Source: Desulfuromonadales bacterium | GTDB lineage: Bacteria > Desulfobacterota > Desulfuromonadia > Desulfuromonadales > JBFHXN01 | Length of the DNA stretch: 24,000 nt | Reading direction: 5' to 3' | Assembly: GCA_041598955.1 (NCBI GenBank) | Contig: JBFHXN010000003.1 | Span: 1-24,000, forward strand | Shown here: positions 10,845 to 12,409 of the stretch, in pieces | Numbering within the stretch: the first letter of the stretch is position 1 | How the letters are laid out: every line of letters starts with the position of its first letter | The notes under the pieces: model-generated | What the model was told of the DNA's origin: nothing | Database searches by the model: none | Seen by the model: only the letters and a program-made list of their open reading frames with translations | Made by a program: the position numbers and the translations under genes

Positions 10845-11141
10845 CTAGCAGCAGGTCTCCCCGCCGCCGCAGTCGCAGCTCGGCTCCTTGCCGGTCAGCC
10901 AGCCGTAGATGATGGCGCTGGCGCAGCCCACGCCGGCCTTGACGGCAAGGGCGTCCACCGGGCAGTTCAGGGCGCAGGCTCCGCACTCCATGCAGCCGTC
11001 CCGGTCGACGATCCGGGCCTTTCTCTCCTCCACCAGCAGGACCCCGTGGGGGCAGACGGCGGCGCAGAGCCCGCAGCCGATGCACACGGCGACGTCCAGC
11101 TCCAGGGTGGCGACTCCATCGAGATAGCGCATATCCTTCAT
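10845..11141 (-). CDS. hgcB: Mercury methylation ferredoxin HgcB (2x[4Fe-4S])
   Basis: The 98-aa product MKDMRYLDG... has CIGCGLCAAVCP and CMECGACALNCP motifs, a conserved internal Cys in GVGCASAIIYG, and a C-terminal ...CDCGGGETCC ending in the vicinal Cys pair characteristic of HgcB. The RBS GGGAGG precedes the ATG. It lies 38 nt downstream of hgcA. Confidence 0.85.
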   Translation of the reverse strand: MKDMRYLDGVATLELDVAVCIGCGLCAAVCPHGVLLVEERKARIVDRDGCMECGACALNCPVDALAVKAGVGCASAIIYGWLTGKEPSCDCGGGETCC

Positions 11142-11179
11142 TCGGGAAAACCTCCCAGCCTTTCCGTGAAAAAAGGTCC

Positions 11180-12409
11180 TTAAAACGCCCCCGCCACCCA
11201 GACGATCCCGGCCACCAGCAGCGCGGCGGCCTGAAGGGGAATGGCCCGGCGCATCTCCTTCTCCACCCCGGAGGGGGAGGTGTAGGGGGTCGAGCCGGTG
11301 AAGTTCATGGCGCAGTAGGAGGCGACCGCGGGGAGGGCGAGGGCCAGGGCGAGGGTGTTCCAGAGGCCGAGGGCCCCTCCCCAGGCGGCCAGGGCCGCTC
11401 CCGCGGCGAAGGTTCCGACCAGGGCTCCCTTGAGGGCGAAGGCCCGCCCCGGAATCCAGGGGAGAAGGAGGGGGGTCAGCACGGCGCCGCTCGCCAGCCC
11501 CGCCAGGTAGACGAGAATCGCCCCCCCGCCCCGGGTGCCGGCGGAGGCGAGGCTGAACCAGTGGCTTCCGATCCCGCCGAGGAGCAGCAGGGCCGCGGCG
11601 GCCCGCAGGGAGATCCGCCCCATCCCCACCAGTTCCACGGGGGTGAGAACCAGCCTCTCCAGGGCCGAAAAGCTCACCCGGCGCATGGCCTCCGTCGCCC
11701 TGTTCCCCGCGGCGAGAAAGGCAGGAAGGTCCGCGGCCCGCACCGGTCCGTAGACTACGGTGAAACCGCATTCCTTTTTGACCCGGTGGGCCGCCACTCC
11801 GGGAGCCCCGAGCTGGGGCAGGATCAGGGTGCGGTGGCTCACCGCAAGGGAGAGCCCGGTGGAGCGGACCCGCCCCACGATCTCCCCGGTCCCGAAGGTC
11901 CCCTTGCCCGCCGCGCACCAGACGTTGATCCCCCGGGTGTCGATGACCAGCAGCCAGGCGTCTAGGCCGGCCAGCTCCCGTCTCAGCAGGTCGAAGCTCA
12001 TCTTGTAGTTGGCCGAGACCAGGACCGGAGAGTCGGCCGCCGGCGAGCCGACGGCATAGAGCCCCGGGGTAACCCGGTAGCGCATCCGGCCCAGGCCCCA
12101 GCGCATCGCCCAGTGTCCCAGGCGGTCCCGCCAGCCCAGGGTGGTCCCGACCCGGGGTGCGCTCCCGAAGGGGGTCGCCACCTGCCCCGTCACCCAGGGG
12201 TAGGGGCGGTAGCCGGGAATCTCGGCCGGAGCCTCCGCCGGGGGGCAGCAGGCCGAGGACTTCTCGGGGGGAGGGCAGCAGGGCTCGGCCGCGGGTTTGG
12301 CCGGCGGACAGCAGGCGCTCCGGGGGGGAGGAGAGCACTCCGGAGTGGGGTTGTTGGTCAGGGGCGGCGCCTCGTCGGGAGGGCATCCGCAGGCTTCACG
12401 TTCACTCAT
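11180..12409 (-). CDS. hgcA: Mercury methylation corrinoid protein HgcA (with Cys/Pro-rich N-terminal extension)
   Basis: VLVSANYKMSFDLLRRELAGLDAWLLVIDTRGINVWCAAGKGTFGTGEIV contains the diagnostic HgcA cap-helix motif N(V/I)WCA(A/G)GK. The C-terminal half is multi-pass hydrophobic (about 4-5 helices). hgcB follows immediately. Confidence 0.9.
   Translation of the reverse strand: MSEREACGCPPDEAPPLTNNPTPECSPPPRSACCPPAKPAAEPCCPPPEKSSACCPPAEAPAEIPGYRPYPWVTGQVATPFGSAPRVGTTLGWRDRLGHWAMRWGLGRMRYRVTPGLYAVGSPAADSPVLVSANYKMSFDLLRRELAGLDAWLLVIDTRGINVWCAAGKGTFGTGEIVGRVRSTGLSLAVSHRTLILPQLGAPGVAAHRVKKECGFTVVYGPVRAADLPAFLAAGNRATEAMRRVSFSALERLVLTPVELVGMGRISLRAAAALLLLGGIGSHWFSLASAGTRGGGAILVYLAGLASGAVLTPLLLPWIPGRAFALKGALVGTFAAGAALAAWGGALGLWNTLALALALPAVASYCAMNFTGSTPYTSPSGVEKEMRRAIPLQAAALLVAGIVWVAGAF

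Follow-up and report, generated by a model that had tools for sequence, protein, structure and literature searches.

An unfused hgcA-hgcB gene pair predicting methylmercury production in an uncultured Desulfuromonadales bacterium

The window analysed here is a stretch of 24,000 nucleotides from a Desulfuromonadales bacterium represented by an uncultured MAG. Two adjacent genes, hgcA and hgcB, lie on its minus strand. hgcA (11180..12409, minus strand, stop codon included) encodes a corrinoid protein of 409 aa with matches to NF040863 and CdhD, while hgcB (10845..11141, minus strand) encodes a 2x[4Fe-4S] ferredoxin of 98 aa with matches to NF040864 and Fer4. The hgcA gene starts with an ATG that has a GAGG 4 nt upstream of it and stops with a TAA at 11180-11182, after which a 38-nt spacer leads to hgcB. 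Within this spacer, the sequence shows a ribosome-binding site for hgcB, GGGAGG (11151..11156, minus strand), 9 nt upstream of its ATG start. GC3 is 0.89 in hgcA and 0.93 in hgcB, in a window whose GC content is 68%, and the codon-position pattern fits that of real genes. A longer ORF of 513 aa in the hgcB frame (10845..12386) was rejected as a high-GC artefact; in the independent annotation of a sister contig, the product has 98 aa.

Family assignment was made with NCBIfam equivalog HMMs and their curated cut-offs. The larger protein scores 452.4 bits against NF040863 (HgcA_corrinoid), 177 bits above the cut-off of 275 (E = 8e-136), and the smaller scores 127.3 bits against NF040864 (HgcB_ferredoxin), for which the cut-off is 99 (E = 1.5e-37). 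Judged by these E values, a chance match is excluded for both proteins. The residues that define each family are present as well. The cap-helix motif GINVWCAAGKGTFG occupies HgcA residues 160-173 (11891..11932, minus strand, located by regular expression); within it, NVWCAAGK spans residues 162-169 and places the cap-helix cysteine at Cys165. The motif is invariant in 81 aligned HgcA. HgcB carries two CX2CX2CX3CP motifs, Cys20/23/26/30-Pro31 and Cys50/53/56/60-Pro61, and matches Fer4 (4Fe-4S) families in Pfam. Its further cysteines are Cys73, Cys89, Cys91 and the terminal pair Cys97-Cys98, and CC is the commonest HgcB ending among the compared loci, found in 46 of the complete HgcB ORFs. A published high-stringency rule asks for one of six cap-helix motifs, NVWCAAGK among them, on the same contig as an HgcB with C(M/I)ECGA (PMC10087281). 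The window pair has both, since the second cluster motif of its HgcB begins with CMECGA at Cys50. The initial annotation had placed an hgcAB pair at 10845-12409, with the cap-helix motif in the 409-aa protein and with an internal cysteine and a C-terminal CC in the 98-aa ferredoxin; both ORFs are found there, and HMMs and motifs agree with that assignment.

HgcA was modelled with AlphaFold2 as a single, cofactor-free chain from a 31-sequence alignment, giving a mean pLDDT of 82.7 and a pTM of 0.75. The model shows a disordered segment at residues 1-60, a beta-hairpin at 73-87, an alpha/beta domain and five long helices. The alpha/beta region corresponds to a CFeSP-like corrinoid-binding domain at residues 85-245 (11675..12157, minus strand), as delimited by phmmer and Foldseek comparison with CFeSP, and the cap-helix segment at 165-171 has low pLDDT in this cofactor-free model. 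The transmembrane domain follows at residues 249-409 (11183..11665, minus strand). DSSP places its helices at 249-278, 287-315, 324-347, 349-369 and 379-408 of the model, mostly with pLDDT above 85, and hydropathy also gives five membrane segments. A corrinoid domain of CFeSP type and a multi-helix membrane domain had both been proposed at the outset; the first is borne out by PF03599 together with the phmmer and Foldseek matches to CFeSP, and the second by the five helices. The best Foldseek match in the PDB is 9a0b_A (E 2.5e-23, 53% identity over 324 columns), which is the deposited 2020 integrative model of the ND132 HgcAB. The next matches are the CFeSP large subunits 2ycl, 4c1n and 4djd, aligned over about 130 columns with an rmsd of 2.2-3.1 A. 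The fold search of the PDB matched only 9a0b and CFeSP structures, and the sequence search of the PDB returned no experimentally solved HgcA.

The pair from ND132 (Pseudodesulfovibrio mercurii/Desulfovibrio desulfuricans; DND132_1056/1057) is the experimentally characterised reference. The window pair shares with it the two-gene layout, the cap-helix motif, the corrinoid-binding domain and the five transmembrane helices, and the 53% identity given above is to the ND132 chain of the 9a0b model. The cobalt-ligand cysteine is Cys93 in ND132 and Cys165 in the window HgcA. The cysteines of HgcB carry the same numbers in both (20/23/26/30/50/53/56/60/73), and both ferredoxins end in CC. In ND132, HgcA is a cobalamin-binding protein and HgcB carries [4Fe-4S] clusters (Cooper et al. 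2020; Zheng et al. 2024). Work on this strain proposes Cys93 as the lower axial ligand of cobalt, and methylation is lost when this residue is changed to Ala or Thr. On the HgcB side, Cys73 and at least one cysteine of the C-terminal pair (Cys94/95) are needed for activity, and this pair is proposed to carry Hg(II), CH3Hg+ or both. The ND132 work also identifies the methyl donor to Co(I) as S-adenosylmethionine and not the long-assumed methyl-tetrahydrofolate.

A mechanism for the window pair can be inferred by carrying these properties over from the ND132 orthologs. The two [4Fe-4S] clusters of HgcB would reduce the cobalamin on the cytoplasmic domain of HgcA to Co(I), which S-adenosylmethionine would then methylate. 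The cap-helix Cys165 would ligate the cobalt in a 'Cys-on' state, promoting methyl transfer to thiol-bound Hg(II). Delivery of Hg(II) and removal of CH3Hg+ would fall to Cys73 and the flexible Cys97-Cys98 of HgcB, while the five-helix membrane domain would anchor the complex and dock HgcB.

A protein search returned 7996 HgcA homologs at E <= 1e-10, and the named matches are annotated as HgcA. The closest NCBI entry is 99% identical to the window HgcA and the next ones are 61-69% identical, the named matches in that range coming from Geoalkalibacter, Desulfuromonas, Deferrisomatales and Desulfuromonadales MAGs. For a broader comparison, the analysis took in 80 loci spread over Desulfobacterota, Bacillota, Planctomycetota, Actinomycetota and other phyla, the best of them 61% identical to the window HgcA. 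A homolog of hgcB lies 14-200 nt downstream of hgcA in 79 of the 80, and the single exception is truncated by a contig end. When the window proteins are aligned with these diverse loci, HgcA keeps all 74 of the 74 columns that are at least 95% conserved, and HgcB keeps 25 of 25.

The locus very probably holds a genuine, intact and unfused hgcA-hgcB pair, that is, a membrane-associated corrinoid methyltransferase system producing methylmercury, and its sequence makes methylmercury production by the source organism a strong prediction. hgcAB is the only known genetic marker of microbial methylmercury production, and the pair marks an uncultured lineage related to Desulfuromonadales as one that probably adds to methylmercury formation where it lives. 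Apart from this annotation value, knowledge of the hgcAB system is unchanged. The initial annotation had called this a known system, and rightly so: hgcAB here is an ordinary member, and its occurrence in this lineage was already known.

Three other explanations were weighed. The genes could be true orthologs of hgcAB that do little or nothing in this organism, being unexpressed, lacking a corrinoid supply or serving another native function with negligible methylation of Hg in situ. The organism is uncultured, methylation rates range widely among strains with hgcAB (Gilmour et al. 2018), and the literature indicates that the native function of HgcAB is apparently not Hg detoxification; a search of the surroundings of hgcAB found no Hg- or As-related genes, mer and ars included. 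This explanation is nonetheless improbable. All of the conserved catalytic and structural residues are kept, at least five near-identical public assemblies contain the genes in intact form, and every cultured organism with unfused hgcAB that has been tested methylates Hg (PMC10087281; Gilmour et al. 2018).

Considerably less credible is the explanation that the larger gene encodes a paralog that does not methylate Hg, belonging to the fused HgcAB-like proteins or to the CFeSP/CdhD family of corrinoid proteins from the Wood-Ljungdahl pathway. Generic searches do lean this way. Pfam finds only the generic CdhD family (PF03599) in HgcA, at residues 112-228, and the sequence matches in the PDB are exclusively CFeSP large subunits (phmmer to 2h9a, 4c1n and 4djd, E ~1e-9, HgcA residues 112-232). 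The score against the fused HgcAB-like model NF043039 is also sizeable, at 200.2 bits, but it falls under the cut-off of 285, and the score against the CFeSP gamma-subunit model, 69.9 bits, falls far under its cut-off of 306. Scoring against the HMMs had been proposed with the first assignment as the means of separating HgcA from both kinds of paralog, and in this HMM-based discrimination only the HgcA cut-off is passed.

Gene and domain architecture point the same way. Fused HgcAB-like proteins, as in Pyrococcus furiosus and Methanococcoides methylutens, share the ferredoxin motifs and, on the HgcA side, the corrinoid domain with its cap helix and the membrane domain with the window pair, but they are single polypeptides, and organisms with fused hgcAB show no Hg methylation in culture (PMC10087281; Gilmour et al. 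2018). In the window, a stop codon and a spacer with its own ribosome-binding site stand between hgcA and hgcB. Because the two are separate genes, the pair differs from the fused form, whose hosts do not methylate Hg when cultured. The CFeSP large subunit (AcsC/CdhE) of the Wood-Ljungdahl pathway has a homologous corrinoid-binding domain with a cap helix, and it receives its methyl group from methyl-THF via MeTr. Its alignment to the window HgcA is confined to the C-terminal ~120 residues of CFeSP, in which CFeSP has a Thr at the position of Cys165. The rest of CFeSP, a soluble protein, consists of an N-terminal [4Fe-4S] domain and a TIM barrel, whereas the window HgcA has the five-helix membrane domain that CFeSP lacks.

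That the locus results from faulty assembly or is a pseudogene locus in decay has a negligible probability: although a nearby gene has a probable nonsense variant (TAG at 8496-8498 in place of the GAG of the sister contig), neither hgc ORF is truncated and each has a proper start, ribosome-binding site and stop, the identical proteins are encoded on independent contigs of MAG assemblies (GCA_041589715.1 and others), and the gene order is common to about 12 related MAGs.

The HgcA of the window also carries a Cys/Pro-rich N-terminal tail (codons 1-84; 12158..12409, minus strand; delimited by sequence and pLDDT), a feature absent from the initial annotation. This tail is disordered, with pLDDT of 41-64 across residues 1-60, and holds 9 of the protein's 12 cysteines along with 23 prolines, arranged in a CGC and three CCPP units. 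The CC pairs lie at 33-34, 44-45 and 54-55, and three other cysteines accompany them. Downstream of these pairs, the tail ends in a conserved PGYRxxPxV motif and the beta-hairpin. The CCPP units show no tandem repeat at the DNA level. At least one CC is present in the tails of 112 of the 119 closest homologs with the cap-helix motif, where the number runs from 0 to 7 and is most often 3-4. In relatives among the 80 loci, extending the reading frame upstream past one TGA reveals Cys-Sec tails. One Sec form, PCUGP, occurs in Desulfovibrio caledoniensis and others, and three of the nearest relatives of the window (loci L006, L008 and L031) have another, CUPPKAPPG. The extension of the window hgcA has no in-frame TGA.

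Such extensions have been described. Most HgcA are reported to be selenoproteins whose CU motif lies in a formerly unrecognised N-terminal extension, some carry CC motifs, and the forms without Sec are noted for 'packing' extra cysteines; an interaction with heavy metals has been suggested for the extension (Haft 2022, bioRxiv 10.1101/2022.07.06.499078). By its sequence, the window tail is the all-cysteine form of this published CC/CU extension. That it might be a new feature is ruled out, as both the extension and the packing of extra cysteines are already in Haft 2022, and a literature search on cysteine-rich or CCPP tails of HgcA returned nothing beyond that report and no functional follow-up. 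The ND132 extension has a single Cys-Sec (PCUGP), in contrast to the three CC pairs and three other cysteines of the window. The originally annotated start of ND132 HgcA leaves out the Sec-containing extension (Haft 2022), and protein made from that start still methylated in E. coli lysates (Zheng et al. 2024). Since ND132 HgcA is active without its extension, the tail is, by analogy, probably auxiliary rather than essential. Its cysteines plausibly form a putative extra soft-metal thiol site. A more specific role can be put forward only tentatively: the poly-CCPP tail may act as an arm that captures Hg(II) or CH3Hg+ and hands it off, with the number of CC units tuning substrate acquisition and offsetting the lack of Sec, since many other lineages have a single Cys-Sec in place of the CC units. 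This proposal extends the heavy-metal interaction suggested in Haft 2022. The tail is of wider interest as a property of the whole HgcA family and not of one locus.

The surroundings of the pair carry a lineage signature. A DAHP synthase gene of aroF/G/H type (12434..13501, minus strand; TIGR00034 at 507 bits, Pfam DAHP_synth_1) ends 24 nt before hgcA on the same strand. By position it is a probable operon partner of hgcA, outside the methylation machinery, and hgcA-hgcB are probably transcribed with it or just after it. Upstream of the DAHP synthase gene lies a sigma-70-like pattern match, TTGACA-17-TAGATT (13549..13577, minus strand), one of 2 sites found by a consensus scan where 0.3 were expected; it is a candidate promoter for aroG-hgcA-hgcB. 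A simple scan gave no convincing intrinsic terminator after hgcB, and no cobalamin riboswitch or other Rfam element was found near hgcAB. Downstream and convergent are a gene for a 65-aa product that matches HTH_17 weakly and then a gene for a response-regulator diguanylate cyclase, and upstream and divergent of the DAHP synthase-hgcAB group are YggT and DivIVA genes. In some Desulfovibrio and Pseudodesulfovibrio, an ArsR-like gene lies upstream of hgcA and is cotranscribed with it; in the window, the DAHP synthase gene takes the upstream place, and the genes adjoining hgcAB, this one and the 65-aa gene, include no ArsR-like regulator.

The full order DivIVA-YggT / DAHPS-hgcA-hgcB / HTH / RR-GGDEF recurs in about 12 of the 80 loci, all of them in Desulfuromonadales-type MAGs. 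This shared order indicates, at the level of sequence comparison, vertical inheritance at a fixed chromosomal site within a Desulfuromonadales-type lineage. Best hits and synteny together suggest that the organism belongs with Desulfuromonadia-type Thermodesulfobacteriota. The closest relatives of the window HgcA, at 61-69% identity, are of the Desulfuromonadales type (Geoalkalibacter, Desulfuromonas versatilis and Geopsychrobacter MAGs). Their multi-CCPP tail and their neighbourhood are those of the window, and they differ from it in that their CC units number 0-7, that some have the Sec form CUPPKAPPG and that the GC content of the window is high. Because the adjacency of the DAHP synthase gene and hgcA is confined to one lineage, it is read as inherited synteny. 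A functional coupling of the two was set aside on the same ground, and a literature search found no link between DAHP synthase and hgcA. The lineage-conserved aroG-hgcA-hgcB arrangement may hint at the native role of HgcAB, a weaker reading than that of the tail as a capture arm. Elsewhere in the window, the only RNA gene is a tRNA-Arg(CCG) at 15989-16065.

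In many of the fetched loci that carry hgcA homologs, the hgcA frame can be read further upstream across one in-frame TGA, which comes after a Cys codon. These loci include L006, L008, and L031, the nearest relatives, along with L023, L048, L074, and others. The TGA lies in the context CUPPKAPPG or PCUGP, and by sequence the extensions are consistent with selenocysteine forms of HgcA. This Cys-Sec form and the all-cysteine N-terminal tail found in the window alternate among its close relatives.

A DAHP synthase gene (aroG) lies 24 nt upstream of hgcA in the window and is itself preceded by a sigma-70-like promoter match, the gene and the match together spanning 12434-13577 on the reverse strand. 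The order aroG-hgcA-hgcB is common to about 12 Desulfuromonadales-type MAGs (L001-L010, L014, and L031); it is not conserved in other phyla among the fetched loci and was not found in the literature. On the other side of the pair, a 65-aa gene (10530-10727, forward strand) is convergent with hgcB and is kept 3' of it in several syntenic MAGs (L002, L003, L007, L009, L010, and L031). Its product has a weak HTH_17 (excisionase/MerR-like) match and no NCBIfam match, and may be a small regulator.

At 7635-9176 on the forward strand, a gene for a NapH/NapG-like membrane polyferredoxin is broken by an in-frame TAG at 8496-8498. On the sister MAG contig, L081, this codon is GAG and the gene product is 513 aa long; the TAG is therefore a single-base nonsense variant or an assembly or sequencing error.

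A putative respiratory module occupies 18568-23843 on the reverse strand. It comprises a cytochrome c (23310-23843), an 1100-aa protein (19866-23168) in which a QrcB-like molybdopterin-type subunit is fused to a QrcC/DsrO-like 4Fe-4S subunit, and a membrane subunit resembling NrfD/DsrP (18568-20511), all on that strand. The module resembles alternative complex III or a Qrc-type quinone oxidoreductase, with every protein scoring under the equivalog cut-off. A tRNA-Arg with anticodon CCG (15989-16065, reverse strand) was the sole RNA gene found in the window.

Finally, a repeated cassette of three successive gene pairs lies at 6-6101 on the forward strand, each pair starting with a NosD-like protein of the right-handed beta-helix type (6-1097, 2328-3701, and 4869-6101). 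CarboxypepD_reg/DUF4198-type proteins follow the first and second copies (1124-2347 and 3698-4738, both forward strand), and an OpuAC-like substrate-binding protein (5951-6703) follows the third.
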